DNA of 64,000 bases from NCBI GenBank assembly GCA_965237525.1, contig CBDEFO010000003.1, forward strand, positions 55,468 to 119,467, read 5' to 3'. Numbering within the stretch: position 1 is the first letter of the stretch; every line of letters begins with the position of its first letter. The notes beneath the pieces are model-generated. The model made no database searches. It saw only the letters and a program-made list of their open reading frames with translations, and had not been told where the DNA came from. The stretch comes from Candidatus Latescibacterota bacterium. GTDB taxonomy: Bacteria; Latescibacterota; CBDEFO01. A program made the translations under genes and the position numbers. Shown in pieces: positions 21,827-63,267 of the stretch.

Positions 21827-22091
21827 TTTTTTATTCTTGTCCCTATTAAAAAACAGTTTCGCACATAACCCGTCGGGGAACTCCCAATGTAGGATAGTTC
21901 CCTACTTTGTGCCGAAACTGTCAAATTAACGCAAACAAAACAATATGTTGGTGAATTTCTAGCCGACAATTAATATGAAAATTAAGCAAAAGTCGTCTCT
22001 TCGTCAAGCTGAAAGTGCAGATAGACTTAAAATTGGTAATACAGAACACAGACAGTTCAAACTTTAGATCTCAATACCAGCAGTCGCATTA

Positions 22092-22418
22092 TTACTGAAA
22101 ATGAACGATCTTTGAGAATGACTCGGGGTCAAGTGAGGCTCCTCCTAACAGCCCGCCGTCTATATTATCCTTCTCCATCAAGTCCGATATATTATCAGGT
22201 TTGACAGAGCCGCCGTATATTATTCTCACGGAGTCGGATGTACAGCTATCGTACATGTCCAAGCAATACCTTATGCAGGAGTGCACCTCCTCGGCCTGTT
22301 GGGGCATCGCTCCCCTGTTATAATCCATCAGGGATTCAAAGAGAATTTTCAGTAGGTGGAAAGCTTCGGCCGTTAGGTCGGAGCTTTTACATTTGGTGTT
22401 ACCTATATGCTCCACCAC
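22092..22418 (-). pseudogene. chimeric ORF: duplicated 3' end of tpiA fused to unrelated sequence
   Basis: 22085-22297 is about 85-90% identical by eye to the tpiA 3' end (25472-25690), reading PQQAEEVHS...[42 protein letters not shown]. 22297-22425 matches 24996-25115, the tail of the small-peptide gene plus the convergent intergenic region. Confidence 0.7.
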
Positions 22419-22838
22419 ATAAAATGCTAACTGACAGCCGACTGGGAGACGAAATTGTTACTTGCTGCCTTGGAAAAGCTTCCGCTTTCGACAAGATCAC
22501 AGAAGATCTTCAGACTCTCTGGAAGCATCTTTAGGTGCGAATTCCAATATGAAATGTACAGTGCCGTCATATTTTCATAATGAAATATTTCTATTGCATT
22601 GCGCATCTACAAGCGCGGTATAACTCGATATTCAGGCGATCACTATAAGTAAACTAAAAGGCTGTAACTCTATGTTATTACACTATTTACTCTGACGAGA
22701 TATGAGGACTTTAATATGACCTTTTACGATTAGAGGTTGCTGTTCAACTGTTGGCACAAATGTTGCACTAATACTATTATGAACGGCACGAAACACAGAC
22801 AATTCAAACTTTAAATCATATAAGGGAGGTGAAAGACC

Positions 22839-22934
22839 GTGAAATTACTAATGCTGATAGAAGGTATAAGTCTGATTGTGGCAGTAGCAGCGTTTGAGAT
22901 GTATGCCTACAACAGCCTCGCTGCCCTGTTCTAA
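22839..22934 (+). CDS. 31-aa hydrophobic peptide, array copy 1 (MKLLMLIEGISLIVAVAAFEMYAYNSLAALF)
   Basis: GTG start 7 nt after GGGAGGTG, TAA stop. The ORF is identical in copies 1-3. It is below the track's size cutoff. Confidence 0.55.
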   Translation: MKLLMLIEGISLIVAVAAFEMYAYNSLAALF

Positions 22935-23024
22935 CCCATCAGGGTTGTAGATTGCTGAAATATTATTGAGCGGCACGAAACACAGACAATTCAACTTTAA
23001 ATCATATAAGAGAGGTGAAAGACC

Positions 23025-23120
23025 GTGAAATTACTAATGCTGATAGAAGGTATAAGTCTGATTGTGGCAGTAGCAGCGTTTGAGATGTATGCCTACAACA
23101 GCCTCGCTGCCCTGTTCTAA
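23025..23120 (+). CDS. 31-aa hydrophobic peptide, array copy 2
   Basis: 96 nt identical to copy 1. The SD is AGAGGTG, 7 nt before the GTG. Confidence 0.55.
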   Translation: MKLLMLIEGISLIVAVAAFEMYAYNSLAALF

Positions 23121-23210
23121 CCCATCAGGGTTGTAGATTGCTGAAATATTATTGAGCGGCACGAAACACAGACAATTCAACTTTAAATCATATAAGGGAG
23201 GTGAAAGACC

Positions 23211-23306
23211 GTGAAATTACTAATGCTGATAGAAGGTATAAGTCTGATTGTGGCAGTAGCAGCGTTTGAGATGTATGCCTACAACAGCCTCGCTGCCCTG
23301 TTCTAA
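23211..23306 (+). CDS. 31-aa hydrophobic peptide, array copy 3
   Basis: 96 nt identical to copy 1. The SD is GGGAGGTG, 7 nt before the GTG. Confidence 0.55.
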   Translation: MKLLMLIEGISLIVAVAAFEMYAYNSLAALF

Positions 23307-23417
23307 CCGATCAGGGTTGTAGATTGCCCAATATTATTGAGCGGCACGAAACACAGACAATTCAACTTTAAATCGTATAAGAGAGGTGAAAGACTGTGAC
23401 AACTGTGACATTACTAA

Positions 23418-24936
23418 AAGCCTTGTGAAATAGTTATGTCCCAGGCAGCGTCTGAAGCGCCGATTATGGGTCAAAGAGTAGCATATCGTATCGTTTTGCT
23501 GTGGAATAAGCAAAATAGTCTTATCAGAGTTCTGGTCAGCAAGGAACAGGAGCTGTTTGAAGAACAGGATGCACTGTCTTTGACAGACAGGGCACACATA
23601 GACGCTTTCCCCCTTCTTATGAAAGATACAAGCCTCTTGAGATTCTGTACTGTTGCAACAAGATTCAACTGTTCATTCAGTGAGGCTGGTCCTCTATAAC
23701 GGGCTCGTCCCATACCGTGTTGTTGCCTGGCTTCAGCAAAGATATGTTCACTGCGTTTACGGAGTCTCCGGGAGAGTTTGTAGTCAGCTGTTAATGAGAT
23801 AGACCGTGCATGATTTCTGGCTTTCGCCTCTCGCACTTTTCTATCCCGTTCGGCCTGAATATGTGCTGAATTTGTCTTGTTTTTCCATGTAGGAATCGGT
23901 TCAATCTTCTCATCGGCTCGCAGAGGAATATGGGGTATGATTCCCCGGTCAAGTACATCAGCGATAAAATTACCAGAACCGTAACCGGTATCGGCACTAA
24001 GTGTCTGAATGTCTTTGGGCATGGTGTATGTTTCAAGGTCATCTACCATCTTAAGGGCACTTTCGGGCTCTGCTGTCCCTGTCGCCTGCGTGCCCTGAGT
24101 CTCAAGGATTACTCTGCTTTTTGTGTCGATCAGATCATGGCCCATAAACGAGAGAAAAGCCCCTTTGCCCTTCGATTTGCTGTATAAGCGCGCGTCGGGG
24201 TCTGTAGTCGAACGGTGTGTTTGGTTCGTCCACTTTTCACCATGAAAGTCTTTATCCTGAGGATGCCCGGACCTACCCTTTGTCTTATCACCTTCAAAAC
24301 CGATTCCCTTGAGATAATCATCAAGAGAAACAGGGGGTTCTATCGGCTCAATACTTTTCACTGAAGCATCAGCTTGTATCTGAGTGCCGTCGACACTAAG
24401 GTGTTTACCGCTCACAAGACCGACATCTATGCAACACTGGACTACCTGACGCATTATCCGTTCAAACAACCCACTGGATGCCCACTTGTGATTGCGAAGC
24501 TTGTTGATCGTGCTCCTATCCGGAACCGCATCATCAAATGTCTGATGACAAAACAACCGATATGCCGCATGCATCCCCACTTCCTGACAGAGCCGATTCT
24601 CACTCAAATTATACAGATAGCCAATAAGGATCATTCGAACAACTAATTCAGGATCAATACCGGGTCTGCCATTGTCAGGGCAATAACAATCTGATACAAC
24701 GTCTCGTACAAATGAAAAATCAACTGCCTCATCAATCTGACGAAGGATATGATCCTCGGGAACTAAATCCTCCATCTGAAAATAGTGAAACATCGGATTT
24801 GTCTGTTCCTGCTTTTGTGGGGTCATTGTTTCCTCCATGTATAATATTATCAATAACATAATATAATACATCGGAGCTGCTTTATCAATGCTTGTTCTAT
24901 ACTACTTTCTGAATCTAAGGGTTTTTCACAAGGCTT
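23418..24936 (-). mobile_element. IS element copy 2 (1519 bp)
   Basis: Same inverted repeats as copy 1, with CTAA direct repeats at 23414-23417 and 24937-24940. Confidence 0.9.
23471..24871 (-). CDS. IS1182/IS5-superfamily DDE transposase (466 aa, intact)
   Basis: The N-terminus (NPMFHYFQMEDLVPEDHILRQID) matches the DUF772-type transposase N-domain. The C-half carries LSADTGYGS and SEHIFAEARQQHGMGRARYRG, a DDE/YREK-like region. Confidence 0.9.
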   Translation of the reverse strand: MYYIMLLIILYMEETMTPQKQEQTNPMFHYFQMEDLVPEDHILRQIDEAVDFSFVRDVVSDCYCPDNGRPGIDPELVVRMILIGYLYNLSENRLCQEVGMHAAYRLFCHQTFDDAVPDRSTINKLRNHKWASSGLFERIMRQVVQCCIDVGLVSGKHLSVDGTQIQADASVKSIEPIEPPVSLDDYLKGIGFEGDKTKGRSGHPQDKDFHGEKWTNQTHRSTTDPDARLYSKSKGKGAFLSFMGHDLIDTKSRVILETQGTQATGTAEPESALKMVDDLETYTMPKDIQTLSADTGYGSGNFIADVLDRGIIPHIPLRADEKIEPIPTWKNKTNSAHIQAERDRKVREAKARNHARSISLTADYKLSRRLRKRSEHIFAEARQQHGMGRARYRGPASLNEQLNLVATVQNLKRLVSFIRRGKASMCALSVKDSASCSSNSSCSLLTRTLIRLFCLFHSKTIRYATL

Positions 24937-32651: not shown

Positions 32652-34170
32652 AAGCCTTGTGAAAAACCCTTAGATTCAGAAAATAGTATAAAACAAGCAT
32701 TGATAAAGCAGCTCCGATGTATTATATTATGTTATTGATAATATTATACATGGAGGAAACAATGACCCCACAAAAGCAGGAACAGACAAATCCGATGTTT
32801 CACTATTTTCAGATGGAGGATTTAGTTCCCGAGGATCATATCCTTCGTCAGATTGATGAGGCAGTTGATTTTTCATTTATACGAGACGTTGTATCAGATT
32901 GTTATTGCCCTGACAATGGCAGACCCGGTATTGATCCTGAATTAGTTGTTCGAATGATCCTTATTGGCTATCTGTATAATTTGAGTGAGAATCGGCTCTG
33001 TCAGGAAGTGGGGATGCATGCGGCATATCGGTTGTTTTGTCATCAGACATTTGATGATGCGGTTCCGGATAGGAGCACGATCAACAAGCTTCGCAATCAC
33101 AAGTGGGCATCCAGTGGGTTGTTTGAACGGATAATGCGTCAGGTAGTCCAGTGTTGCATAGATGTCGGTCTTGTGAGCGGTAAACACCTTAGTGTCGACG
33201 GCACTCAGATACAAGCTGATGCTTCAGTGAAAAGTATTGAGCCGATAGAACCCCCTGTTTCTCTTGATGATTATCTCAAGGGAATCGGTTTTGAAGGTGA
33301 TAAGACAAAGGGTAGGTCCGGGCATCCTCAGGATAAAGACTTTCATGGTGAAAAGTGGACGAACCAAACACACCGTTCGACTACAGACCCCGACGCGCGC
33401 TTATACAGCAAATCGAAGGGCAAAGGGGCTTTTCTCTCGTTTATGGGCCATGATCTGATCGACACAAAAAGCAGAGTAATCCTTGAGACTCAGGGCACGC
33501 AGGCGACAGGGACAGCAGAGCCCGAAAGTGCCCTTAAGATGGTAGATGACCTTGAAACATACACCATGCCCAAAGACATTCAGACACTTAGTGCCGATAC
33601 CGGTTACGGTTCTGGTAATTTTATCGCTGATGTACTTGACCGGGGAATCATACCCCATATTCCTCTGCGAGCCGATGAGAAGATTGAACCGATTCCTACA
33701 TGGAAAAACAAGACAAATTCAGCACATATTCAGGCCGAACGGGATAGAAAAGTGCGAGAGGCGAAAGCCAGAAATCATGCACGGTCTATCTCATTAACAG
33801 CTGACTACAAACTCTCCCGGAGACTCCGTAAACGCAGTGAACATATCTTTGCTGAAGCCAGGCAACAACACGGTATGGGACGAGCCCGTTACAGAGGACC
33901 AGCCTCACTGAATGAACAGTTGAATCTTGTTGCAACAGTACAGAATCTCAAGAGGCTTGTATCTTTCATAAGAAGGGGGAAAGCGTCTATGTGTGCCCTG
34001 TCTGTCAAAGACAGTGCATCCTGTTCTTCAAACAGCTCCTGTTCCTTGCTGACCAGAACTCTGATAAGACTATTTTGCTTATTCCACAGCAAAACGATAC
34101 GATATGCTACTCTTTGACCCATAATCGGCGCTTCAGACGCTGCCTGGGACATAACTATTTCACAAGGCTT
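32652..34170 (+). mobile_element. IS element copy 3 (1519 bp)
   Basis: Same inverted repeats, with TTAA direct repeats at 32648-32651 and 34171-34174. Confidence 0.9.
32717..34117 (+). CDS. IS1182/IS5-superfamily DDE transposase (466 aa, intact)
   Basis: Differs from copy 2 at one residue (FSFIRDVV versus FSFVRDVV). Confidence 0.9.
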   Translation: MYYIMLLIILYMEETMTPQKQEQTNPMFHYFQMEDLVPEDHILRQIDEAVDFSFIRDVVSDCYCPDNGRPGIDPELVVRMILIGYLYNLSENRLCQEVGMHAAYRLFCHQTFDDAVPDRSTINKLRNHKWASSGLFERIMRQVVQCCIDVGLVSGKHLSVDGTQIQADASVKSIEPIEPPVSLDDYLKGIGFEGDKTKGRSGHPQDKDFHGEKWTNQTHRSTTDPDARLYSKSKGKGAFLSFMGHDLIDTKSRVILETQGTQATGTAEPESALKMVDDLETYTMPKDIQTLSADTGYGSGNFIADVLDRGIIPHIPLRADEKIEPIPTWKNKTNSAHIQAERDRKVREAKARNHARSISLTADYKLSRRLRKRSEHIFAEARQQHGMGRARYRGPASLNEQLNLVATVQNLKRLVSFIRRGKASMCALSVKDSASCSSNSSCSLLTRTLIRLFCLFHSKTIRYATL

Positions 34171-37620: not shown

Positions 37621-39117
37621 ATTCAGAAAGTAGTATAGAACAAGCATTGATAAAGCAGCTCCGATGTATTATATTATGTTATTGATAATATTATACATGG
37701 AGGAAACAATGACCCCACAAAAGCAGGAACAGACAAATCCGATGTTTCACTATTTTCAGATGGAGGATTTAGTTCCCGAGGATCATATCCTTCGTCAGAT
37801 TGATGAGGCAGTTGATTTTTCATTTATACGAGACGTTGTATCAGATTGTTATTGCCCTGACAATGGCAGACCCGGTATTGATCCTGAATTAGTTGTTCGA
37901 ATGATCCTTATTGGCTATCTGTATAATTTGAGTGAGAATCGGCTCTGTCAGGAAGTGGGGATGCATGCGGCATATCGGTTGTTTTGTCATCAGACATTTG
38001 ATGATGCGGTTCCGGATAGGAGCACGATCAACAAGCTTCGCAATCACAAGTGGGCATCCAGTGGGTTGTTTGAACGGATAATGCGTCAGGTAGTCCAGTG
38101 TTGCATAGATGTCGGTGTTGTGAGCGGTAAACACCTTAGTGTCGACGGCACTCAGATACAAGCTGATGCTTCAGTGAAAAGTATTGAGCCGATAGAACCC
38201 CCTGTTTCTCTTGATGATTATCTCAAGGGAATCGGTTTTGAAGGTGATAAGACAAAGGGTAGGTCCGGGCATCCTCAGGATAAAGACTTTCATGGTGAAA
38301 AGTGGACGAACCAAACACACCGTTCGACTACAGACCCCGACGCGCGCTTATACAGCAAATCGAAGGGCAAAGGGGCTTTTCTCTCGTTTATGGGCCATGA
38401 TCTGATCGACACAAAAAGCAGAGTAATCCTTGAGACTCAGGGCACGCAGGCGACAGGGACAGCAGAGCCCGAAAGTGCCCTTAAGATGGTAGATGACCTT
38501 GAAACATACACCATGCCCAAAGACATTCAGACACTTAGTGCCGATACCGGTTACGGTTCTGGTAATTTTATCGCTGATGTACTTGACCGGGGAATCATAC
38601 CCCATATTCCTCTGCGAGCCGATGAGAAGATTGAACCGATTCCTACATGGAAAAACAAGACAAATCCAGCACATATTCAGGCCGAACGGGATAGAAAAGT
38701 GCGAGAGGCGAAAGCCAGAAATCATGCACGGTCTATCTCATTAACAGCTGACTACAAACTCTCCCGGAGACTCCCTAAACGCAGTGAACATATCTTTGCT
38801 GAAGCCAGGCAACAACACGGTATGGGACGAGCCCGTTATAGAGGACCAGCCTCACTGAATGAACAGTTGAATCTTGTTGCAACAGTACAGAATCTCAAGA
38901 GGCTTGTATCTTTCATAAGAAGGGGGAAAGCGTCTATGTGTGCCCTGTCTGTCAAAGACAGTGCACCCTGTTCTTCAAACAGCTCCTATTCCTTGCTGAC
39001 CAGAACTCTGATAAGACTATTTTGCTTATTCCACAGCAAAACGATACGATATGCTACTCTTTGACCCATAATCGGCGCTTCAGACGCTGCCTGGGACATA
39101 ACTATTTCACAAGGCTT
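37599..39117 (+). mobile_element. IS element copy 4 (1519 bp), flanks do not match
   Basis: Same inverted repeats. The left flank is TTAA (37595-37598) but the right flank is CTAA (39118-39121). Confidence 0.9.
37664..39064 (+). CDS. IS1182/IS5-superfamily DDE transposase (466 aa, intact, most diverged copy)
   Basis: Several substitutions relative to copies 2 and 3 (NKTNPAH, RRLPKRSEH, DSAPCSS, SSYSLL). Confidence 0.9.
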   Translation: MYYIMLLIILYMEETMTPQKQEQTNPMFHYFQMEDLVPEDHILRQIDEAVDFSFIRDVVSDCYCPDNGRPGIDPELVVRMILIGYLYNLSENRLCQEVGMHAAYRLFCHQTFDDAVPDRSTINKLRNHKWASSGLFERIMRQVVQCCIDVGVVSGKHLSVDGTQIQADASVKSIEPIEPPVSLDDYLKGIGFEGDKTKGRSGHPQDKDFHGEKWTNQTHRSTTDPDARLYSKSKGKGAFLSFMGHDLIDTKSRVILETQGTQATGTAEPESALKMVDDLETYTMPKDIQTLSADTGYGSGNFIADVLDRGIIPHIPLRADEKIEPIPTWKNKTNPAHIQAERDRKVREAKARNHARSISLTADYKLSRRLPKRSEHIFAEARQQHGMGRARYRGPASLNEQLNLVATVQNLKRLVSFIRRGKASMCALSVKDSAPCSSNSSYSLLTRTLIRLFCLFHSKTIRYATL

Positions 39118-40382: not shown

Positions 40383-40404
40383 CGATTGAATAGTTGTTCA
40401 ATTG
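40383..40404. promoter_or_regulatory. candidate ArsR/SmtB operator (10-2-10 imperfect inverted repeat)
   Basis: CGATTGAATA-GT-TGTTCAATTG has 8/10 complementary arms and resembles the TGAACA/TGTTCA-containing 12-2-12 boxes of SmtB/CzrA/CadC. It lies just upstream of the ATPase start. Confidence 0.35.
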
Positions 40405-40422
40405 ATTTTGTATGGAGATATT

Positions 40423-42792
40423 ATGATGTCTCTATCAGATGTCTGTGATTTGCGCCTTAAGATTAAGGGCATGGACTGTCCCGCTTGCTCCTCCAAGATA
40501 GAGCGTGGTGTTTTGTCTTTGGATGGCGCCGAGTCCGCCAGAGTCGATTTTGTGAAGGGAAGTCTAGAGGCGAAAATAGATGAGGCAAAAATCGATATGG
40601 GCAAGATCGCCTTTCAGATCCAAAAGTTGGGTTACGATGTGATTAAGGAGGGCGATTTTTCACAGAGTGGTAGCACCACAACTTCCGTATTTAAGGTGGA
40701 GGATATGGACTGTGCAGATGAGGCCTTTCTGATAGAGAGAAAATTGAAGTCTTTGGAAGGTGTAGAGGAATCTAGCTTCAATTTTGTGGCTCGGACGATG
40801 ACGGTGAAGCACAAAATAGAGGATGAGGACATAGAAAGGGCTTTAGCTGAAATAGGTTTCCAGGCGACAGTTCAAAGTGATAAGGAAGATGAAGGAGCGT
40901 TTTGGGAGAAGCATAAAAAGACGGTTTTAACAATCGGATCTGGGATATTTACCCTTTTGGGGTTTGCGCTTTGGTACTCCGGATTCGAAGAAAACATAGT
41001 TCTTCCGATATATGTCCTGGCTATGACTTTGGGAGGACTGCAAATTGCAAAGAAGGGATTGGCTGCGGTGAGGAATCTTTCATTGGATATGAACTTCCTT
41101 ATGACAATTGCCGTGATAGGAGCCGCTGCATTAGGGGAATGGCTTGAGGGTGCGATGATTATATTCTTGTTCTCTTTAGCTCAGCTGCTTGAGAGTCTCA
41201 GCATGGACAAAGCAAGAAATGCCATCGGTTCGCTGATGGACCTGTCGCCGGCTGAGGCTACGGTCAAGAGAAACGGCGAACAGATGAAGCTTGCGGTTGA
41301 GGACGTGCAGATAGAAGATGTAATGGTGCTAAAGCCCGGTGAGAAGATAGCCCTGGATGGAGTTGTTCTGTCTGGAACTTCGGCTGTGAATCAGGCACCG
41401 ATGACGGGGGAGTCGATCCCTGTCGAGAAGTCAAAGGGACATGAAGTCTATGCGGGGACCATAAATGAGGGAGGATCCCTTGATGTTAAGGTGACTAAGC
41501 TATCGAAGGATACTACCCTAAAAAGGATTATTCATATGGTGGAGGAGGCGCAGAGCAGAAGGGCTCCATCTCAGAACTTCGTGGATAAGTTCACAAAGTA
41601 TTACACTCCGACTGTGATAGCGGGGGCCGTAGGAGTGGCAACAGTGCCTTGGCTCTTTTTCGAAGCACCTTTTGGCCACTGGTTTTACAGGGCCTTGGTG
41701 CTTCTGGTTATATCGTGTCCGTGTGCCTTGGTGATCTCGACTCCGGTGTCAATAGTCTCAGGCATTATGAGCGCGGCAAAAAGAGGCGTGCTGATCAAGG
41801 GAGGGCTACATTTAGAGAACACAGGAACAATAAGGGCTTTAGCCTTTGACAAGACAGGTACGCTGACCGAAGGAAGACCGTACGTAGACGAGATCATTTC
41901 GATAAATTCTTTCTCCCACGAGGAGATAATAGAGATCGCGGCTTCTGTGGAGTCGAGGTCTGAGCATCACCTAGCACAGGCTATCGTAGAGAAGGGTAAA
42001 GAAATAGGCATAGACATTAAGGAGGGCGAAGATCTCCAGATCATATCGGGTATGGGGGTTCAAGCCGAAGTTAAGGGATGGGATAAAAAGGGGGGATTCT
42101 TCATTGGAAATCACCGTCTCGTAGAGGAAAAAGGACTATGCAACCCCGAGGTAGAGGCTCATTTGAATCGGTTGGAATCGGAGGGTAAGACGGCTGTGAT
42201 TTTGGGAGATGAGGAGGGAGTGATAGGGATTATGTCTATTTCTGATAGGGTCAGAAAGGGGATTAAGGAGGTTATAGAGGAACTCCACAAGAGCGGAATC
42301 CAAAAGATTATCATGCTAACTGGAGATAACAAAGGGACCGCTGATGCCATCGCCAAAGAATTGGGGATAGATGAATATAAAGCTGAGCTTCTGCCGCAGG
42401 ACAAGGTTGATGCAGTTGAACAGCTAAGAGTTAAGTACAGTAATGTGGCCATGGTCGGGGACGGCGTGAACGACGCTCCTGCTTTAGCGGCCTCGACCGT
42501 AGGGATAGCTATGGGAGCAATAGGGACAGATACGGCCTTAGAGACGGCTGATATAGCGCTCATGTCGGACGATCTTTCCAAACTGCCTTACACTGTGGAA
42601 CTTTCAAGGAAGACAGTCACCACTATAAAGGAGAACATATTCCTTTCGATTCTGATCAAAGCCCTCTTCTTGGCTCTTGCAATAGGCGGGATGGCGACCT
42701 TGTGGATGGCTGTAGCTGCGGATATGGGTGCGTCGCTCTTGGTGATCTTCAACGGCTTGAAAGTGCTTAGGTTTCGGGCTAAACAAGAGTAG
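40423..42792 (+). CDS. P1B-type heavy-metal (Cd/Zn/Pb-type) translocating ATPase
   Basis: N-terminal HMA domain GMDCPACSSKIE plus a second, degenerate HMA. CPC in VISCPCALVISTP, DKTGTLT, and GDGVNDAPAL. The track ORF begins at 40402, but the ATG at 40423 follows GGAG. Confidence 0.9.
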   Translation: MMSLSDVCDLRLKIKGMDCPACSSKIERGVLSLDGAESARVDFVKGSLEAKIDEAKIDMGKIAFQIQKLGYDVIKEGDFSQSGSTTTSVFKVEDMDCADEAFLIERKLKSLEGVEESSFNFVARTMTVKHKIEDEDIERALAEIGFQATVQSDKEDEGAFWEKHKKTVLTIGSGIFTLLGFALWYSGFEENIVLPIYVLAMTLGGLQIAKKGLAAVRNLSLDMNFLMTIAVIGAAALGEWLEGAMIIFLFSLAQLLESLSMDKARNAIGSLMDLSPAEATVKRNGEQMKLAVEDVQIEDVMVLKPGEKIALDGVVLSGTSAVNQAPMTGESIPVEKSKGHEVYAGTINEGGSLDVKVTKLSKDTTLKRIIHMVEEAQSRRAPSQNFVDKFTKYYTPTVIAGAVGVATVPWLFFEAPFGHWFYRALVLLVISCPCALVISTPVSIVSGIMSAAKRGVLIKGGLHLENTGTIRALAFDKTGTLTEGRPYVDEIISINSFSHEEIIEIAASVESRSEHHLAQAIVEKGKEIGIDIKEGEDLQIISGMGVQAEVKGWDKKGGFFIGNHRLVEEKGLCNPEVEAHLNRLESEGKTAVILGDEEGVIGIMSISDRVRKGIKEVIEELHKSGIQKIIMLTGDNKGTADAIAKELGIDEYKAELLPQDKVDAVEQLRVKYSNVAMVGDGVNDAPALAASTVGIAMGAIGTDTALETADIALMSDDLSKLPYTVELSRKTVTTIKENIFLSILIKALFLALAIGGMATLWMAVAADMGASLLVIFNGLKVLRFRAKQE

Positions 42793-52783: not shown

Positions 52784-54936
52784 ACCAAAACACAAAACTC
52801 AAAGTTGCATTCCCATCTATCTTTAGGACCTATCCCTATCTTCCAATTGGGAAACACAACGGAGCTTTGATATGTCCTTTCAAAGCCTTTTTCCGATTGC
52901 GAAACTGTCTCCACAGGAAAACGCCATACGTCTGTCTTTCTATCGAATTTTAACGACACAGTCAAATTCCGATCATCGTCGTCTAAATCTATCCTATCTA
53001 TTCCTTCAACAGCTCCTGTGCTCCCTAAACTGCAATCCTTTAAGTCCACTTGTAAATTTCGACTACGGATCTCGTAGTGCCTTGCTGGTCCCTCTCCTGA
53101 TAGAAATGAAAAATTAAACTCCACGCCGAACCAGAGTTCTACGTCCGCATCCAGAGGGTTTTCAATAACGTAGCGCACATCCACTTGGGCGTTAGATTTA
53201 GACATCTTAAGCTTCTTGGACACCGTCAAAGGTTGTTTCTTTTGTCCGTATATCCCCCCATCTCTTCGCATTGATACCTCTTTGCCACCATTTTGATCCT
53301 TAATATCGTACAAATAAGGCTGATTCACAAAATCTCCCAACTCCCGGTACTCGCACGCCTTGAATCCTTCAAGTGAGGTCCCTTCTCCCAGGAAATGATC
53401 CAGAAAGCACACTCTGTTGTACCAGTCATATTTGAGATAACGCTCGATTCCCTCCTCCGTCACCTTAGCCAGGTCGTGAATACTGCCAGGCCCTTCATAC
53501 TGTTTGCCCTCCACTTCTACCTCATACCTGCCCTCTATGATATCCCTGTGATAGCTTTCAGGCCTCCTTGACAGAGTGTTCACCAGATTGAAATCTCTCG
53601 GCTTGTAGTCCAATTCAAAGAGTGACCCGCCGTAGGAAGGATCAAGATACAGATTCAGCAGGCCGTTGCTCAAGATAATCTCATCTTTTCCGTCCCCGTC
53701 AAAATCCAACTCCTCGGACTCAATCCAATCTCCTGAACCTTTTTCCTCTTCATCGGAGATCCTTTCGGCCCTTATAAGGTGTCTGTAAACGGTGTCCCTT
53801 AGATGAGGCAGATAGAGACCTCCGAACACGCCGTGCCAGTAAGCACAGTTACACTGTCCTTTCCATAGCTCGCTTATAGCTTCTCCCTCCCCTTTTAAAT
53901 CGACTTTCCTGCTCACAGAGAGCATCTTTTTGTGCATATTGTTGCTCTCATCATACTTGGCCAGGAACCCCCTCCAGAATCCGCCCTTTAAGAACACCTT
54001 ATACTTTTCTATCTCTCCTTTGTCCTTCAAATCCTCCACAATATCCTCAAGCTCCGCTCCCTTTTGAGATGGGAGAGTCCATTGGCTCATCTCAAAATAA
54101 GAGGCTGTCGGGAGGTATGCCCTGCCTGAAGCCGGGTGCTTATCGGTGAAGTCCGAAAAGGTAGTGGTATTAATCCAATCGCTGTTCTCCTCCAGAGCAC
54201 AGAAGAACTTCTCCAGCCACTTCTCCTTATAGACCCAATCGTAAGTCTTGGGCCATAGGCCGAACTTCTCTCCGTCGTCAACGATCACCGATAACCTGTC
54301 TCGATTCAGAGAGGTCGGATCGTTCTCAGTGCCCATGTCTCGTAGATAATCGATTGTAAATTCTGGTAACTTGAACGGAATTCCGTATCTCAGCCTTTCG
54401 CTTATCGGAAAGATAGAGAGCACATACCCCTGTTCTTCAGTATTGAAATATCCGTAGAGTTCCTCTTCGTTGAATCCGGCGCTTTTGAAGTGATAATCGT
54501 CGAGGGCTACATACTTTATCCCCGCCTCAGCCAGCGGCTTGGGTAGGTGAGGCTCCCATACCCTTTCAGGCAGCCACATCCCCCTTGCCTCGTACCCGAA
54601 TCTATCCTTGATGTAATCTGTCAACATCTCTATTTGACCTATCTTATCCCTGTCGGGGATAATAGGCATAATAGGCTCGTAGAATCCCCCGGTCATCATC
54701 TCGACCTGTCCTCTATCTACTAACTCTTTCAGCATAGCGATAAACTCAGGTCTCTTTTGCTCTATCCATTCCAGAAGACAGCCGGAATAGTGCAGAACCA
54801 TCTTTATAGAGGGGTGCCTTGAAAGGATCTGGATAAAGGGCAGATACGACTTTTTGTAGGCCATTTGAAAGACAGAGTCAAAATTCCCCACTGGTTGATG
54901 GCAGTGTATCCCGAATATAAGATTTATCCTCTTCAT
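52774..54936 (-). CDS. GH57-family alpha-glucan enzyme (4-alpha-glucanotransferase/amylase type with C-terminal beta-domains)
   Basis: GIHCHQPVGNF, GGFYEPI, WLPERVWEP and ALDDYHF are the GH57 conserved regions. The start MKRINLIF at 54936 overlaps the upstream stop (ATGA). Confidence 0.85.
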   Translation of the reverse strand: MKRINLIFGIHCHQPVGNFDSVFQMAYKKSYLPFIQILSRHPSIKMVLHYSGCLLEWIEQKRPEFIAMLKELVDRGQVEMMTGGFYEPIMPIIPDRDKIGQIEMLTDYIKDRFGYEARGMWLPERVWEPHLPKPLAEAGIKYVALDDYHFKSAGFNEEELYGYFNTEEQGYVLSIFPISERLRYGIPFKLPEFTIDYLRDMGTENDPTSLNRDRLSVIVDDGEKFGLWPKTYDWVYKEKWLEKFFCALEENSDWINTTTFSDFTDKHPASGRAYLPTASYFEMSQWTLPSQKGAELEDIVEDLKDKGEIEKYKVFLKGGFWRGFLAKYDESNNMHKKMLSVSRKVDLKGEGEAISELWKGQCNCAYWHGVFGGLYLPHLRDTVYRHLIRAERISDEEEKGSGDWIESEELDFDGDGKDEIILSNGLLNLYLDPSYGGSLFELDYKPRDFNLVNTLSRRPESYHRDIIEGRYEVEVEGKQYEGPGSIHDLAKVTEEGIERYLKYDWYNRVCFLDHFLGEGTSLEGFKACEYRELGDFVNQPYLYDIKDQNGGKEVSMRRDGGIYGQKKQPLTVSKKLKMSKSNAQVDVRYVIENPLDADVELWFGVEFNFSFLSGEGPARHYEIRSRNLQVDLKDCSLGSTGAVEGIDRIDLDDDDRNLTVSLKFDRKTDVWRFPVETVSQSEKGFERTYQSSVVFPNWKIGIGPKDRWECNFEFCVLVLD

Positions 54937-55640
54937 ACGTACCACATCCTCTCCAGAAAATCCTTCCCGGGGACCTCTACTGTCATGGCTCCGTGCAGAG
55001 GCCACACCTCCATCTGTGAACCACCCTTCACAACGTATATCCTTACCCCAACGCTCTCTCCCTTCGACGCTCCCAGGGTGTCAAACGGCACTTTTACCTC
55101 GAACACCTTATCTACTCCTACTTCGATATCTGGGAAGTTCTTATTGTTGTTCTCAAGGGACATATCGAGTCCCAATCTATCTTTTCCCACAACCTCTATC
55201 GCGACAGAGATGCCTTCATCTCTCATCTGGTCGGGACTTATTGTCGTATCCGCTCTCAGATAGAGATTCTCTAGATCGAAGCCGTAATGCACGTTCTTTA
55301 AGATCGTTCCTCCTCGATGCGTCGAACCCCTTTCGCCACCCATGCTGTGGCATCCTGCGCTCAACCACTCATAGTACCCTGTCACCTTTCCATCTATAAC
55401 GGGGCATATGAAATCCACAGGCTCCTTGAAAGGCAGTCGCTTCTCCACCTTTGTAAGAGGAACATCCAGATATCCCGGCGGTTCTTTGCCTATCAACTGG
55501 TAGAAATTCTTCAGATGACCTCTGAAGAGACTGTCGAACTGCTCATCGTGTGATGACGAATGATCTGCCCCGTACCACCAGAACCAGTCGCTTCCCTGGG
55601 CCATATAGATCTCATCTTGCGCTCTTCTTACTGCAGGAGA

Positions 55641-55665
55641 TCCCACCCGATTTAATCGGGAGGGA
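55641..55665. repeat. TCCCACCCGATTTAATCGGGAGGGA palindromic element inside coding sequence
   Basis: It lies in frame in the GH57 gene, coding ...DPSRLNRVGS... Confidence 0.5.
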
Positions 55666-56098
55666 TCCTCTTTTAGACTGTCCAGTTCATCACCAGCCAT
55701 CTTTAGATACTCCCAGCCCCTATTCTCCTCTTCGTCGCCTATCCAGGTCCCGAAATTGGCGTCTATCCACGAACCCGGAAAGATCCTCTTCAAACGCGTC
55801 CCTTCAGGGTGCATCTTTAGAAAAGAATTAAAAGTTATAGTCTTTAATCCTTTGGTGTTACTCAACTTCTTGTACAGCGCCCTTAGAAACTCGGCTCCAT
55901 TTTCCCTGTAATTCTCCCAGGCGTTCTCACCATCCAATATTATCGAAACTATGTGCGCTCCACTGTCTGCCTCAATGCCGTCTCTTATATTCAAAAGGCG
56001 CCCCACGAAGTCCTCCGCCGCTTTTTTGGCATCCCATGTTTGATACACAAACCCTATAAGGTCGGACAATCTGTGGTCTCTGAAGAAGAGCTTTATGT

Positions 56099-56138
56099 CC
56101 CCGATTGAACCCCCCCCCGATTAAATCGGGGGGGGGGG
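56099..56138. repeat. CCCCGATTGAA + C9-GATTAAATC-G11 palindromic element inside coding sequence
   Basis: On the plus strand, CCCCGATTGAA-CCCCCCCCC-GATTAAATC-GGGGGGGGGGG. This is the site of the GH57 frame change. Confidence 0.7.
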
Positions 56139-57127
56139 ATTTGTCTCCATCTCCGAAGCTGTACATCCGAAAGGGCGTTCCACTTTTTCCGCTTAGCTTG
56201 AGAGACTCCCTCAAAACTCCGTCGTCGCTTGCCATCCAATCTATCCCCAAACCGGCGGCGATATTCCCAACTTCCTGGCTTATCGAACCTTCAGATGGCC
56301 ACATTCCAGAAGGAGTTTTTCCAAGAATCCTATTGTGAAACTCTAAAGCTTCCACAATCTGAGCCCTGGCATCCCCTGGCCTTTTTAACTTCAAGCGGGG
56401 GAGATTAGCTTGCGGAAGACCCTCCCTTGCTGAATCAGTATCGCACAAAAGCGGCAATATGGGATGATGAAAGGGACTAGTAGATATTTCGATCCTTTCT
56501 TCATCCCACAATCTTCTGTAAATCTGGGTTATCTTGCCTATAATCTCTCTTTCCAACTCAAGGAGGACCCTCTTATTGTCCTCAGAATAGCCCCTTCCCT
56601 TCCTCAAAAGTTCCACTATCTGATCTTTCTCTTTCAGACTATTCCCGCACCACGCCAGATTGAAGCAGACCTGAAGGTCCAGAAAATCCTCCTTCTTAAA
56701 CCTCTGTACTGCCCTTTCCAGATTATCCCCGTCTCTACGTCTCATCGCGTAGAGTTCATAATATCTCTTAAAGGGTTTTATCATATTTTCAAAATTTGCG
56801 TGGAAGAAATTTTCCAAGATAAAGACCTTATCATCCAAAGAGAGTTCTTCGGCTTCCTTTTTCGTCAGCTCCCAGAATTTATCGCTGGCCTTTCCCTCAG
56901 CGTAATCCTTCAACTGGACTAAAAGCGATGGGACCAAATTAAACGTCACCCTCACCTCCTCGCATTCATCCACGATAGCTGCCATATCGTAATAATCCTT
57001 AATACCGTGCAGATACACCCATGGCAGAATGTACTCCCCTGAGGAAAGGTCCTTATAAAATGGCTGGTGCATGTGCCACAAAAACGCCACATAGAGCGGA
57101 TGCCCCGATTTTGTCGAAGCATCCACG

Positions 57128-59914: not shown

Positions 59915-61030
59915 TTAGAAAAATACGTGAAGTTCAAAGGTTAACCGATCTTCACTTTCCCGGGGTCTCTGAGGGACACTATCGTTGATGTGGTAAAACA
60001 CGCTCAACTGAAGAAACTGGGTTATGAAGGGTTCCAAGCCAATAGTTACCCTTTCGCTTTCGTCCTCATCAACTTGGGGATCGGCATCGAAAAATCGGTC
60101 CCAGAAATCGTAAGTCACCTTGAGGTTGATACCCTTTGTAATCAAAAAGTCAAGTTCCCCCAAAAAGGCAAGTTCCTTTCCAAAACGGTCGTCCCTGTCA
60201 CTATCTATAAAGTCTAACTCGCTTAAAAGAGTCAATCTTCCGAAATTTGCTCCTGCAAAGTGTCCATATACCTTCCTGGTCGTTCCGGGAAACTTGTTCC
60301 TTGAAAACGATCCTCCGAACCTGAAATGTCTGAAAACAACATAACCTATCAAGGACACCTGCTTACTCCTGTTGTCATCAGATAATCCCCGTCCGGACCC
60401 GTTGCTTAGAGCTACGCTAAAAGAAAAAGGCCCGGGCTCTATGCCGCCTTCTATACCGAAGTCTTGTATATTGTAGTTAAACCCCGTCTTCTCCCTTATA
60501 AATGCAGCATTGTCCAGGAGTCTTAATCCGAACGGGAGCAGCATCCTTCCCGCCTTGAAATAGCCCCTCAAGGGCAGATTGTATAAGATCCCGTATGCCT
60601 CCCTGTTGCTTGCCCCAGACGGACCTAAGTTCTCATCAACATACAAAGTTAGCAAATCCTTTATGAGCTCCATCTCCACATAAGCGTTCGCGGTTCTGAT
60701 CTCTATGCTGTTATCGTTTTCTCTATCCACTCCGAATATCGTCTGGTTATTAACCCTCAAATCCGCGCCTAGAGATATATAATCGTTTAGCCTGTTGTCA
60801 AAAAGGGCTTCGTTAGAACGTTTGACGAATCTGTGGGGGAGACGCGTGTAGCTGTACATCAGGCCGAAATCGGTCCTTTTTCCTCCTCCCGTCGGATTCA
60901 CATGGCACTGGCTGCACTTGTATCCCGTCCTCGCTGCCAGATAAGGCTCAGCGCGGCAGAACTTTGGAAGAACTACAGCTCCTGAAACTAGTATCCAGAT
61001 CAGACACACAGCCTTTAACTTTTTTTTCAC
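59915..61030 (-). CDS. outer-membrane beta-barrel protein with N-terminal CXXCH haem motif (Cyc2-like fused cytochrome-porin candidate)
   Basis: Signal peptide, then YKCSQCH (about 60902-60916) some 12 residues after the predicted cleavage site. About 320 aa of alternating beta-strand-like text follows, ending ...TFELHVFF (terminal Phe, an OMP signature). Confidence 0.6.
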   Translation of the reverse strand: MKKKLKAVCLIWILVSGAVVLPKFCRAEPYLAARTGYKCSQCHVNPTGGGKRTDFGLMYSYTRLPHRFVKRSNEALFDNRLNDYISLGADLRVNNQTIFGVDRENDNSIEIRTANAYVEMELIKDLLTLYVDENLGPSGASNREAYGILYNLPLRGYFKAGRMLLPFGLRLLDNAAFIREKTGFNYNIQDFGIEGGIEPGPFSFSVALSNGSGRGLSDDNRSKQVSLIGYVVFRHFRFGGSFSRNKFPGTTRKVYGHFAGANFGRLTLLSELDFIDSDRDDRFGKELAFLGELDFLITKGINLKVTYDFWDRFFDADPQVDEDESERVTIGLEPFITQFLQLSVFYHINDSVPQRPRESEDRLTFELHVFF

Positions 61031-61057
61031 CTTCCCGCCTGTGACTCGTAGAAGAGT

Positions 61058-62161
61058 TCAATCGTTATTGGCTCCCCTTAATATCCACTCCTTTATCACA
61101 TCTATTTGCTCCTGGGGCAGGGGTGGCTCACCGGAAAAGAAAGGCGGCATCTGGTCTCCCACGATTCCGTTCCTGCCTTCCAACTTCCAGATCATATAGC
61201 TGTTCTCAGGGTCGCCCGGATCTACTCTCGGGATTCCTATCGAACTGTCGACCCCGACCAAATTATCGAAGGACTCGCCCTCCTCAAGGGTGAAAGGCCC
61301 TGTCCCTCCTGGGACGTGGCAATTTATACATATTGCGCTAAATACATTTTCCTGAATAGCTGACAGCGTGGGCGGGAAGGGTCCGGACATCTGGACGCTG
61401 ACCATGATATTGACCACCACACTCGACTCGTCGCTGTCATTGCTTATAATCTCTACCGCACCCTCAGCTGAGGTGGCTTGGAGGAGGGATGTGTTGATCA
61501 GCAGCTTAAGGAACACTGACCCACCCGGTGGCACTGTTTCATCAGATAGCGCCAGGGGGGTGATCCAGTCGACAGTTGAGACCAGACTGCTCAACGCCAG
61601 ATCGGCGCTTCCCAGGTTCTGGATAGTCACAGTAAGAGTGTCCGACTCTCCCTCCACTATCTCTGCGCTGAGATCAAGGGGGGTAACATTTATCTCCGGC
61701 AGCGGCATCTCTGTGACGGTCAGGACGATTGCGATTGTCTCAGATGGACTCTCTGCGTCGTCGCTCAGGATCGTAAGCGTCCCCTCTGATGAGCCAAGAG
61801 GGATATCGGTTGCATCAATCCTAATGAGGATCTCCAGCGACTCGTCTTGGCCCAGAGCTTTGGAGGCCACAAGCGTCGTGGCCCACGGCACGTCCGAGCT
61901 GACACTCAAGACAGTCAGCGGAAACCCTCCCACGTTTGTGACCGTCACCGAGACTGTGTCGACCGTTTCCTGAGTCAGCGAAAGGCTGACCTGCCCAGGC
62001 GCCACCTGGATCTGAGGCGGACCGAGGGGATTCCCCTGCGGATCCAAAGTGCTGCCGTCTCCGGCGCAGGACAGAACAGAAATAGCGAACCCCAACAAAA
62101 GACATAAAATCCAAACTACCCTATTTTCCGCCTTGATAGTCCCCGTCCTTCGTCTTCTCAT
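61058..62161 (-). CDS. lipoprotein with two Ig-like beta-sandwich repeats and a C-terminal monohaem cytochrome c (Planctomycete PSCyt-like) domain
   Basis: The N-terminus MRRRR...ILCLLLGFAISVLSC contains a lipobox. There are two about 100-aa T/S/V-rich repeats (VSVTVTNVGGFPLTVLSV..., LTVTIQNLGSADLALSSL...). The C-terminus reads IQENVFSAICINCH...VDPGDPENSYMIWKL...MPP...L..EQIDVIKEWI. Confidence 0.65.
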   Translation of the reverse strand: MRRRRTGTIKAENRVVWILCLLLGFAISVLSCAGDGSTLDPQGNPLGPPQIQVAPGQVSLSLTQETVDTVSVTVTNVGGFPLTVLSVSSDVPWATTLVASKALGQDESLEILIRIDATDIPLGSSEGTLTILSDDAESPSETIAIVLTVTEMPLPEINVTPLDLSAEIVEGESDTLTVTIQNLGSADLALSSLVSTVDWITPLALSDETVPPGGSVFLKLLINTSLLQATSAEGAVEIISNDSDESSVVVNIMVSVQMSGPFPPTLSAIQENVFSAICINCHVPGGTGPFTLEEGESFDNLVGVDSSIGIPRVDPGDPENSYMIWKLEGRNGIVGDQMPPFFSGEPPLPQEQIDVIKEWILRGANND

Positions 62162-63089
62162 TATCCTCCCAGAACAGCTTGTAAAAGAATCCCTTTTTCT
62201 CTGTAAGAGACTGAACGTAGTGAACCAAAGACCACTTCCTACTCACCTCTATAGCGGTCTTCTCCTCATCTGACATAGTGTCCCTTTCCTGCCTTGTAAT
62301 CAGACTCTTTATGTAATCCTTAACCCCTTTGATTTCATCATCAGAGTAATAACCCTCAAAGGTCACAAGGTCCTGATAGCTTTCTCTCGTAAAGAGAAAA
62401 CTCCTGGCGTAGGAGGGCATGGGAGTTCCGCTCAAGCCCGTATTAAACACCCTGTAGATGTCCTTATTCGCCCGACCGCCTTTGTACTCTCCCTTTGTAA
62501 AATCATAAGCCTCTATCGGATTTCCCCAGCTGTCTTTGAGATTATCGGAAGAGGGGCCATCGCCTTTTCCCCTCTTGCCGTGACATTTCCAGCACTGCAT
62601 GAGCATGTATATCTTTTCACCCTGGGCTATCGTCTCCTGGGTGACCGGCATCTCCTGTGGTATATCTATCGGCGCTTTAGGCCTTCTTTTTTCAAACTTA
62701 CTTGAAAAGGTCTTGATGTACTGAATTACAAACATCCGCTCGTCCTCCGAGAGAATATCTCCCCAGGCGGGCATGGAAGTACCCGGAATTCCCCTGGATA
62801 TAGTCCTGAATATATCCTCATCTGCAGGAAGAGATCCCGATGGCGTAGAGCGGAACTTGTAAGCCCCCTTGGTAAAGTCTCTCGGCTTGGGATCAAGATA
62901 CTTCGCAGCGGGTCCACTTCCGTTCCCGCTCTGGCTGTGACACGCTGCGCACGCCTTATTGTATATCCTCTCTCCCCTGAGGGCTGAGACGCTCCATTCC
63001 TTGCTTGATTGGCTGTCAGAGGAAAAGGCGCAGCCAGGAACGCAGAGCCACAAGACGTTGACAGTCCAGAAAATAGGAATTGACCTCAT
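62121..63089 (-). CDS. periplasmic dihaem cytochrome c
   Basis: Signal peptide and two haem motifs, CAACH and CWKCH, each followed by a Met-containing distal region (GIPGTSMPAW, LSGTPMPSY). Its stop overlaps the next gene's start by 41 nt. Confidence 0.8.
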   Translation of the reverse strand: MRSIPIFWTVNVLWLCVPGCAFSSDSQSSKEWSVSALRGERIYNKACAACHSQSGNGSGPAAKYLDPKPRDFTKGAYKFRSTPSGSLPADEDIFRTISRGIPGTSMPAWGDILSEDERMFVIQYIKTFSSKFEKRRPKAPIDIPQEMPVTQETIAQGEKIYMLMQCWKCHGKRGKGDGPSSDNLKDSWGNPIEAYDFTKGEYKGGRANKDIYRVFNTGLSGTPMPSYARSFLFTRESYQDLVTFEGYYSDDEIKGVKDYIKSLITRQERDTMSDEEKTAIEVSRKWSLVHYVQSLTEKKGFFYKLFWEDNEKTKDGDYQGGK

Positions 63090-63267
63090 TCTTAGCTCCC
63101 GTAATCATCCTTCTCAAATAAAAAGCGACAGATGCTGTAACCCATCGCCTGAAGGTCTACTCTTTCGCCCCCTCGATAACACAAGCAATTTAATACATAA
63201 AATATCAAATGTCAAGGAAGATTTGACGCACATATAGATAGCCCTACGCATAAGCTTAAGTTTATAG

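Follow-up and report, generated by a model that had tools for sequence, protein, structure and literature searches.

The window analyzed here, a 64-kb stretch of DNA (64,000 nucleotides) from a Candidatus Latescibacterota contig (CBDEFO010000003.1), carries on its minus strand a three-gene cytochrome operon, A-B-C, whose last gene encodes a putative haem-bearing porin. Sequence comparison suggests that this last product, protein C, is a distant, motif-divergent, and unannotated relative of the Cyc2 fused cytochrome-porins. By analogy with Cyc2, the operon probably serves these bacteria, which are not known to have such a device, as a small gate that lets electrons cross the outer membrane. We give somewhat better than even credence to a specific version of this proposal, in which C would be an outer-membrane monohaem peptide fused to a 16-strand OprP-like barrel, on the Cyc2 branch, that passes electrons via the lipoprotein cytochrome B and the dihaem cytochrome A.

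Three Tightly Packed Cytochrome Genes

The open reading frame (ORF) listing and translation place gene A at 62121–63089, gene B at 61058–62161, and gene C at 59915–61030, all on the minus strand. A shares 41 nt with B, and a 27-nt gap separates B from C, in the order and with the spacing given by the initial annotation. A contig from an independent assembly of a near-identical strain (L081; 99.76% identity over 14 kb) yields the same three gene calls; here and below, L numbers denote homologue-bearing contigs that were compared with the window. A Shine–Dalgarno-like GGGAG precedes the ATG of A, a strong Shine–Dalgarno sequence (GGAGG) precedes the start of B, and C begins with GTG. Only four ORFs in the window carry a CXXCH motif, and three of them are A, B, and C.

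Gene A encodes a secreted dihaem cytochrome c of 322 aa with a signal peptide and the haem motifs CAACH (aa 47–51, nt 62937–62951) and CWKCH (aa 166–170, nt 62580–62594); Pfam Cytochrom_C matches it twice (E 1e-21). Gene B encodes a 367-aa protein recognized as a lipoprotein by its lipobox (VLSC, lipid Cys32, nt 62066–62068). A conserved GDGSTLDPQGNPLG motif lies between the lipid Cys32 and two Ig-like domains (aa ~51–250, nt 61412–62011; PF22544, E 1.7e-7; NCBIfam choice-of-anchor D, E 4.6e-11); the C terminus is formed by a monohaem domain (aa 265–367, nt 61061–61369), with CINCH at aa 278–282 (nt 61316–61330) and a weak PSCyt1 match.

Protein C, identified as a fused monohaem cytochrome-porin from its ORF, homologues, structural model, and profile comparison, has 371 aa. 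It comprises a predicted signal peptide (aa 1–27, nt 60950–61030; cleavage between CRA and EPY), a haem module (aa 28–63, nt 60842–60949), and a 16-strand barrel in the AlphaFold2 model (aa 85–371, nt 59918–60778). Its sole CXXCH, CSQCH (aa 39–43, nt 60902–60916), lies 12 residues past the predicted cleavage site, and the protein ends in HVFF, with a C-terminal Phe. The initial annotation had read the three products in these same terms—a dihaem cytochrome, a lipoprotein with two Ig-like stretches and a PSCyt-like monohaem domain, and a secreted protein with one CSQCH just past the cleavage site and a terminal Phe—and each of these features was found.

Conservation of the Haem Site

Homologues of C form at least 1198 clusters (90% identity) at E ≤ 1e-3, and each one with a source name is labeled hypothetical. 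Motif statistics were taken over the 120 best homologues. The CXXCH is kept at the same place in 120/120 of these, from at least eight phyla, within a near-invariant block at the mature N terminus: A-E-P-Y-[LIF]-A-x-R-x-G-[YF]-K-C-S-Q-C-H-V-N-x-T-G-G-G-[KM]-R-x-x-F-G. This block starts at the predicted signal-peptidase site and is the most conserved part of the family. Judged by conservation, H368, K/M51, and Y30 are candidates for the sixth ligand of the haem.

The opposite reading, that the CXXCH of C is a chance Cys pair in an ordinary, haem-free porin, had been raised in the initial annotation together with an alginate-export assignment, and conservation of the motif had been proposed there as a check. 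We found no point in its support. Because the motif is kept in all 120 homologues inside a near-invariant block, and because most of these proteins have no other Cys outside the signal peptide, we reject it as effectively refuted and consider it vanishingly improbable. Nor did an ordinary-porin assignment bear out at the family level: Pfam and NCBIfam scans of C gave no match at E ≤ 1, which rules out membership in any curated porin family in those libraries, including any MtrB/PioB-type model that they may contain.

Predicted Fold of Protein C

The AlphaFold2 model of C, built on a 62-sequence alignment, is a confident 16-strand barrel (predicted local distance difference test, pLDDT, 86.8; predicted TM-score 0.81), as the initial annotation had expected of the strand-rich body. 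The N-terminal module is confident from residue 41 on, with pLDDT >80 for haem-module residues 41–70. Compared with the PDB by Foldseek, the model finds OprP (2o4v) first, OprO (4rjx) third, and OprO (4rjw) fifth, with general 16-strand porins after them. The match to OprP/OprO, the phosphate- and diphosphate-selective channels of Pseudomonas aeruginosa, is structural (E 4e-12, query-normalized TM-score 0.65) at an identity of 12–13% and without sequence-level similarity; searched as a profile against PDB sequences, the C-family alignment gave zero matches. OprP and OprO also differ from C in having neither a haem motif nor cytochrome partners.

After the haem block, the second most conserved element of the family is the loop between barrel strands 5 and 6 (aa 164–189, nt 60464–60541, from the strand list of the model). 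It reads LLPYGLRLxDDxAFIRxxTGF, with P166, G168, R170, D173, D174, F177, R179, T182, and G183 invariant or nearly so. In the model, and by position only, this loop is assigned to the place of the L3 constriction loop of classical porins. A fold nearest to OprP/OprO and a conserved Arg- and Asp-rich loop would also suit a protein that is primarily a solute porin, an OprP-like anion or phosphate channel in which the haem serves as a redox-sensitive plug, gate, or sensor. We return to this alternative with the gene linkage, which bears on it most directly.

The idea of a barrel that works with c-type cytochromes to carry electrons across the outer membrane is shared with MtrCAB, MtoAB, and PioAB, and Mtr has a lipoprotein cytochrome partner (MtrC), as C has B. 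The construction differs: MtrB-type barrels have 26 strands, are haem-free, and surround a separate decahaem protein, whereas C has 16 strands and its own single haem motif, and its partners are mono- and dihaem rather than decahaem proteins. C is distinct from MtrB, PioB, and MtoB by strand number and by its own haem motif, and the window holds no multihaem gene.

Relation to Cyc2

Cyc2 has been defined as a 16-strand OprO/OprP-like porin, no shorter than 365 aa, with a single CXXCH that is preceded by (A-x-)P-x-F-A-R-[Q/K]-[T/Y] and followed by P-x-L (Keffer et al. 2021, PMC8406198). The P-x-F-A-R-[Q/K]-[T/Y] motif served as the inclusion filter for the published set, now 1,593 sequences, and OprP and OprO are the structural homologues reported for Cyc2 PV-1 (PMC8406198). 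The characterized members—Mariprofundus Cyc2 PV-1, Acidithiobacillus ferrooxidans Cyc2, and Leptospirillum Cyt572—are all oxidases (PMC8406198).

Protein C agrees with several parts of this definition. It has a signal peptide and a single N-terminal CXXCH, placed within ~12 residues of the mature N terminus and followed by a 16-strand barrel, as in Cyc2; AlphaFold2 and Foldseek give that barrel OprO/OprP as structural homologues. With 371 aa it also exceeds the length threshold, although 52 of the 120 closest homologues fall below 365 aa, the FeGenie cut-off. A Cyc2-motif reference protein that was modeled likewise has 16 strands, a long strand 5–6 loop, and OprP as its best PDB match.

Profile comparison extends the resemblance to sequence. 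The Cyc2 reference proteins were recovered from metagenomes by motif and come from a large, mostly Terriglobales family of ~470 aa; one reference query (L091) was stitched from a frameshifted gene, and the widened search comprised 2799 representatives at E ≤ 1e-3. In hhalign, the C family matches the narrow Cyc2-motif set with 94.9% probability and a set of 24 diverse Cyc2-motif proteins with 96.6% probability (E 6e-10, 335 columns). On its own, the mature haem module reaches 96.4% (E 1e-9) over 31 columns that include one insertion of 3 residues, against E 0.06–0.7 for eight column-permuted nulls and E 0.12 for a reversed profile. The profile similarity is driven by the haem module.

Within that module, the C family and the Cyc2-motif set have in common A(−12), P(−10), a hydrophobic residue (−8), A(−7), G(−3), a basic residue (−1), C-S-x-C-H, and then F-G, so that the block stands in register as A-x-P-x-[F/L/I]-A ... 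G-x-[K/R]-C-x-x-C-H ... F-G. The published motifs themselves fail: PxFAR[Q/K][T/Y] and PxL each occur in 0/120 C-family proteins vs. 119/120 Cyc2-motif references. In their place, C has E-P-Y-[LIF]-A-x-R-x-G upstream and, with the 3-residue insertion, V-N-x-T-G-G-G-[K/M]-R downstream. The C family is also ~70–100 aa shorter, its hosts are mostly FCB-group heterotrophs, and it keeps a lipoprotein monohaem partner of a kind that we did not find described for Cyc2 loci.

The Cyc2-type architecture proposed in the initial annotation is therefore borne out by the OprP/OprO structural matches and by remote homology to Cyc2-motif proteins. Its accompanying remark that the haem-site sequence does not look like Cyc2 holds for the published motifs; it does not hold for the block as a whole, which has diverged from Cyc2 but is related to it. 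Homology of the haem module, failure of the motifs, and the short lengths together lead us to place C as a divergent branch of the same superfamily, outside the current definition.

Earlier surveys may have met this branch under another name. Two studies report "Cyc2 homologues" in Gemmatimonadota, Calditrichota, and KSB1, and some C-family members may already have been counted as Cyc2. The metagenome-assembled genome (MAG) KW1-S21_193, which carries two C-family members (L057 and L071), is absent from the FeGenie-derived, author-checked Cyc2 calls for its data set (PMC10367259, Table S7). In the literature we found no paper describing the C-family motif variant.

Several searches for further Cyc2 sequences were less productive. 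A metagenome scan for the Cyc2 motif with the published spacings taken literally gave no match; a later motif scan gave 23, several of which are Cyc2-like genes with single-base insertions or deletions. On one contig, L098 (Ga0137417_1486279), the 5′ end of a Cyc2-like gene is present twice, as diverged and frameshifted copies in inverted orientation, which looks like an assembly or hairpin artefact. A homologue search with a 110-aa piece from L098 returned N-terminal fragments only. A tblastn search of C against PLSDB plasmids, aimed at Burkholderia/Ralstonia Cyc2 homologues, found no match.

Hosts and Gene Linkage

We surveyed hosts by scanning one genome per species with a search pattern specific to the C-family motif, which returned 126 relatives. 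They occur in Gemmatimonadota (the largest share), Latescibacterota, KSB1, Calditrichota, Marinimicrobia/Fidelibacterota, and Fibrobacteria, and further in Rhodothermales/Bacteroidota, Acidobacteriota, Planctomycetota, Bdellovibrionota, and Entotheonella; one is found in a cultured gammaproteobacterium, Thalassomonas sp. RHCl1. A Latescibacterota MAG chromosome (L001) has a C that is ~93% identical to that of the window. With this C-family-specific pattern, the scan found none in Zetaproteobacteria, Gallionellaceae, Chlorobium, Leptospirillum, or Acidithiobacillus. Some genomes, the MAGs D_3_bin.27, OFTM153, and KW1-S21_193 among them, hold the haem-porin gene in two copies, in tandem (L023, 5944–8784; L067, 4704–7050) or on separate contigs.

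Linkage was counted over 76 C genes with enough upstream sequence, and other neighbors over 80 loci. In 57/76 loci, from different phyla, the gene directly preceding C encodes a B-type monohaem domain, and 28/76 (~37%) also have an A homologue, which never occurs without B. Across genomes it is the B+C pair that is conserved, rather than the three-gene operon of the initial annotation.

These counts bear on the solute-porin alternative introduced above. It gains from a C subgroup that has no cytochrome neighbor and from a sigma-54 response regulator upstream in 23/80 loci from several phyla, although not at this locus. A dedicated monohaem cytochrome gene linked to C in 75% of loci is hard to explain for a transport porin, and the haem module of C is homologous to that of proven iron oxidases; we regard a primary transport role as distinctly improbable.

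Four other recurrent neighbors were rejected as functional partners. Aldehyde dehydrogenase, a type-II NADH dehydrogenase (NDH-2), ValRS, and NFACT are each confined to single lineages and look like inherited synteny.

Partner Cytochromes

The C terminus of B has PSCyt1 ("Planctomycete cytochrome C", PF07635) as its best Pfam match, at 20.0 bits against a gathering cut-off of 22 (E 0.001), and B homologues show similar PSCyt1 scores or a weak match to Cytochrome_CBB3. As in PSCyt1, CxxCH is followed ~55 residues on by a conserved (Q)MP. The B family differs in that its cytochrome domain is preceded by a lipobox and a G-D-G-x-x-L-D-x-x-G-N-P motif and in that its haem motif varies (L014, L035–L077): most phyla have CX2CH, some Marinimicrobia have CX3CH (CAVKCH), and Gemmatimonadota have CX4CH (C-x-F-S-G-C-H). 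A typical homologue is a 145–260-aa lipoprotein made of the lipobox, the G-D-G-x-x-L-D-x-x-G-N-P motif, and a ~100-aa cytochrome domain; the B encoded in the window has its two Ig-like domains inserted after that motif, ahead of the cytochrome domain. In Thalassomonas sp. RHCl1, the B homologue (L044, 4456–5889) is a 477-aa lipoprotein in which the monohaem domain is followed by two cytochrome P460 domains (CNTCH and CASCH). The unit there consists of B and C only and lies directly after bioF-bioC-bioD-like biotin-synthesis genes.

Protein A has a close relative of known structure. Residues 38–231 align with residues 10–203 of the 226-aa chain B of PDB 6h5l (225 bits, E 8e-66), with both haem motifs in place. 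PDB 6H5L is a Kuenenia protein resembling hydroxylamine oxidoreductase (HAO), and in Kuenenia stuttgartiensis the dihaem Kustc0457 forms an α6β6 complex with the nitrite reductase Kustc0458. Taking the entry and the described complex together, we regard chain B as very probably Kustc0457, the dihaem partner of the HAO-like nitrite reductase Kustc0458, although our sources do not say so directly. A differs from it by a 90-aa C-terminal extension and by its linkage to a haem-porin; neither the 64-kb window nor the sister contig of 18 kb was found to contain an HAO-like, octahaem, or other multihaem ORF. The pairing of a haem-porin gene with one for a dihaem cytochrome c also recalls Acidithiobacillus, in which cyc2-cyc1 pairs the porin-cytochrome with a dihaem c4 gene.

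Near the haem-porin operon in four loci, an A-like dihaem cytochrome is joined to an EB_dh domain (ethylbenzene-dehydrogenase gamma-like, haem b) in a protein of 540–570 aa (L005, 8475–10925; L007, 6636–9135; L073, 1782–4150; L075, 1714–4055). A membrane-anchored monohaem cytochrome is encoded just ahead of it in all four.

Taken together with the P460 fusion, such relatives could indicate periplasmic nitrogen-oxide chemistry, involving NO, hydroxylamine, or nitrite, in which C would let the molecule in, sense it, or get rid of electrons while B and A serve a catalytic haem protein as electron partners. The affinity of A to the 6H5L dihaem subunit, the P460 domains in Thalassomonas, and the dihaem–EB_dh proteins with their membrane monohaem cytochromes all lean this way. 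Set against them, the window contains no HAO, P460, or nitrite/NO reductase gene, the P460 fusion occurs in 1/80 loci only, and dihaem class-I cytochromes are generic electron carriers. We think a nitrogen-oxide role quite unlikely.

A Candidate Route for Electrons Across the Outer Membrane

The route that we favor follows the model proposed for Cyc2, in which the peptide that bears the haem is placed where a narrow, conserved pore opens to the periplasm. In C, the haem peptide would similarly lie at or within the opening that the barrel turns toward the periplasm. Some small, soluble, redox-active species would enter the pore, which is narrow and strongly conserved, and trade one electron with the haem. 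The foremost candidate for this species is Fe2+, because every characterized relative carries out Fe2+ oxidation. The electron would then move to the monohaem domain of B, lipid-tethered to a membrane next to the barrel, and in this organism onward to the soluble cytochrome A with its two haems, which would pass it to the respiratory chain of the inner membrane. The analysis establishes the gene structure, the conserved haem motif, the barrel fold, the homology of the haem module to Cyc2-motif proteins, and the B–C and B–C–A linkage; that haem is attached, that C lies in the outer membrane, where the haem sits, and the order C-B-A, direction, and substrate of electron transfer are inferred from these.

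A number of observations weigh against this proposal. For any member, the C family is known from sequence and model alone. The Cyc2 reference set was picked by motif and comes without the experimentally tested Cyc2 proteins; neither published motif recurs in the C family, as counted above; and the barrel alone shows no significant sequence similarity to Cyc2-motif proteins (E 0.008, probability 5%). Among the host phyla heterotrophs predominate, and there is no known iron oxidizer. Neither B nor A lies near C in 19/76 loci, one C subgroup is a lone gene among housekeeping genes, and no inner-membrane redox partner genes are encoded near the operon. Two partner relatives hint at nitrogen-oxide chemistry rather than iron: the closest characterized relative of A partners an HAO-like nitrite reductase, and one B homologue carries two cytochrome P460 domains. 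Heterotrophic hosts, the affinity of A to an HAO partner, and the P460 fusion lead us to keep other substrates and the reverse direction open.

The reverse direction needs no change of architecture. B and C, with A where present, would pass respiratory electrons outward to a soluble extracellular or pore-accessible acceptor such as chelated Fe(III), Mn(III), humic quinones, or reactive oxygen species, making the system a reductive extracellular-electron-transfer or detoxification device in sediment heterotrophs. The hosts fit this picture, being mainly anaerobic or facultative sediment and soil heterotrophs and not lithotrophs, and NDH-2 is encoded divergently upstream in nine Gemmatimonadota loci. 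The Cyc2 literature, moreover, allows other functions for homologues in non-iron-oxidizers, and one paper states that annotation cannot tell oxidation from reduction. The NDH-2 linkage is, however, lineage-restricted and could be inherited synteny; solid acceptors are out of reach for one haem inside a narrow pore; and all characterized relatives (Cyc2 PV-1, A. ferrooxidans Cyc2, Cyt572) are oxidases (PMC8406198). On balance we judge outward flow unlikely, although it deserves to be taken seriously.

A further alternative concerns substrate instead of direction. B and C may make up an outer-membrane redox module in its own right, widespread among heterotrophs of the FCB group and Gemmatimonadota. 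Instead of oxidizing Fe(II), it would move single electrons between the periplasm and another small soluble species at the cell surface; examples are nitrogen oxides or hydroxylamine, species of Mn, iodine, or sulfur, and organic redox shuttles. The variable part of B—Ig-like domains here, P460 domains in Thalassomonas—would then set the chemistry. We put it forward tentatively, as an unlikely but credible reading.

The stakes extend beyond this operon, since Cyc2 is the main genetic marker for inferring microbial iron oxidation from metagenomes. The C family, with its at least 1198 clusters at 90% identity and no annotation in Pfam or NCBIfam, shows that the fused cytochrome-porin design reaches far past the sequences that the motif definition in use recovers. 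It is common in abundant heterotroph phyla of sediment, soil, and sea, for which redox chemistry at the outer membrane is not usually considered, and it brings with it a conserved and previously unremarked lipoprotein cytochrome partner. If the family does oxidize Fe(II), iron-cycling surveys undercount these groups; if it does something else, it opens a new way to study electron exchange between such bacteria and their environment. With Thalassomonas sp. RHCl1 as a cultured carrier, a small system, and a simple two-gene core, the question is directly testable.

Operon Leader and Genomic Surroundings

The operon has opposite-strand neighbors upstream (Memo and AMMECR1) and CNNM/CorC genes downstream, all unrelated to it. 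A sigma-70-like promoter candidate, TTGACA-17-TAAATT (63187–63215, minus strand), lies ~100 nt upstream of gene A within the 290-nt divergent intergenic region; it is a consensus match only (10/12 positions), in a region where 7 promoter-like sites were found vs. 4.2 expected. Between this site and the start codon of A, in the putative 5′ leader, is a terminator-like hairpin with a T-run (63123–63150, minus strand; 11-pair stem with 4 GC pairs), which could act as a leader or attenuator. An Rfam scan of the operon and leader gave zero family matches.

Elsewhere in the window, a 466-aa transposase ORF (DUF772 + DDE_Tnp_1) occurs in three copies, at 23471–24871 (−), 32717–34117 (+), and 37664–39064 (+), with near-identical Pfam scores that indicate a multicopy insertion sequence (IS) element within 15 kb; the sister contig L081 holds a fragment of the same kind of transposase (188–1148). 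A GH57 gene (54933–57126, −) is split into two overlapping ORFs of 378 and 384 aa. Its L081 counterpart is a single 730-aa gene, and the window carries one extra base at 56118, either a sequencing error or a real frameshift or pseudogene. Beside the IS copies and ~17 kb from the operon lies a heavy-metal P-type ATPase gene with two HMA domains (CopA-like; 40402–42792, +). Base composition departs from its usual range in two places: positions 16001–18000, which hold an ATP-grasp/ATP-citrate-lyase-like gene (16495–17694), reach 60% GC vs. about 47–50% elsewhere, and GC falls to 43% at an IS copy at 22001–24000.

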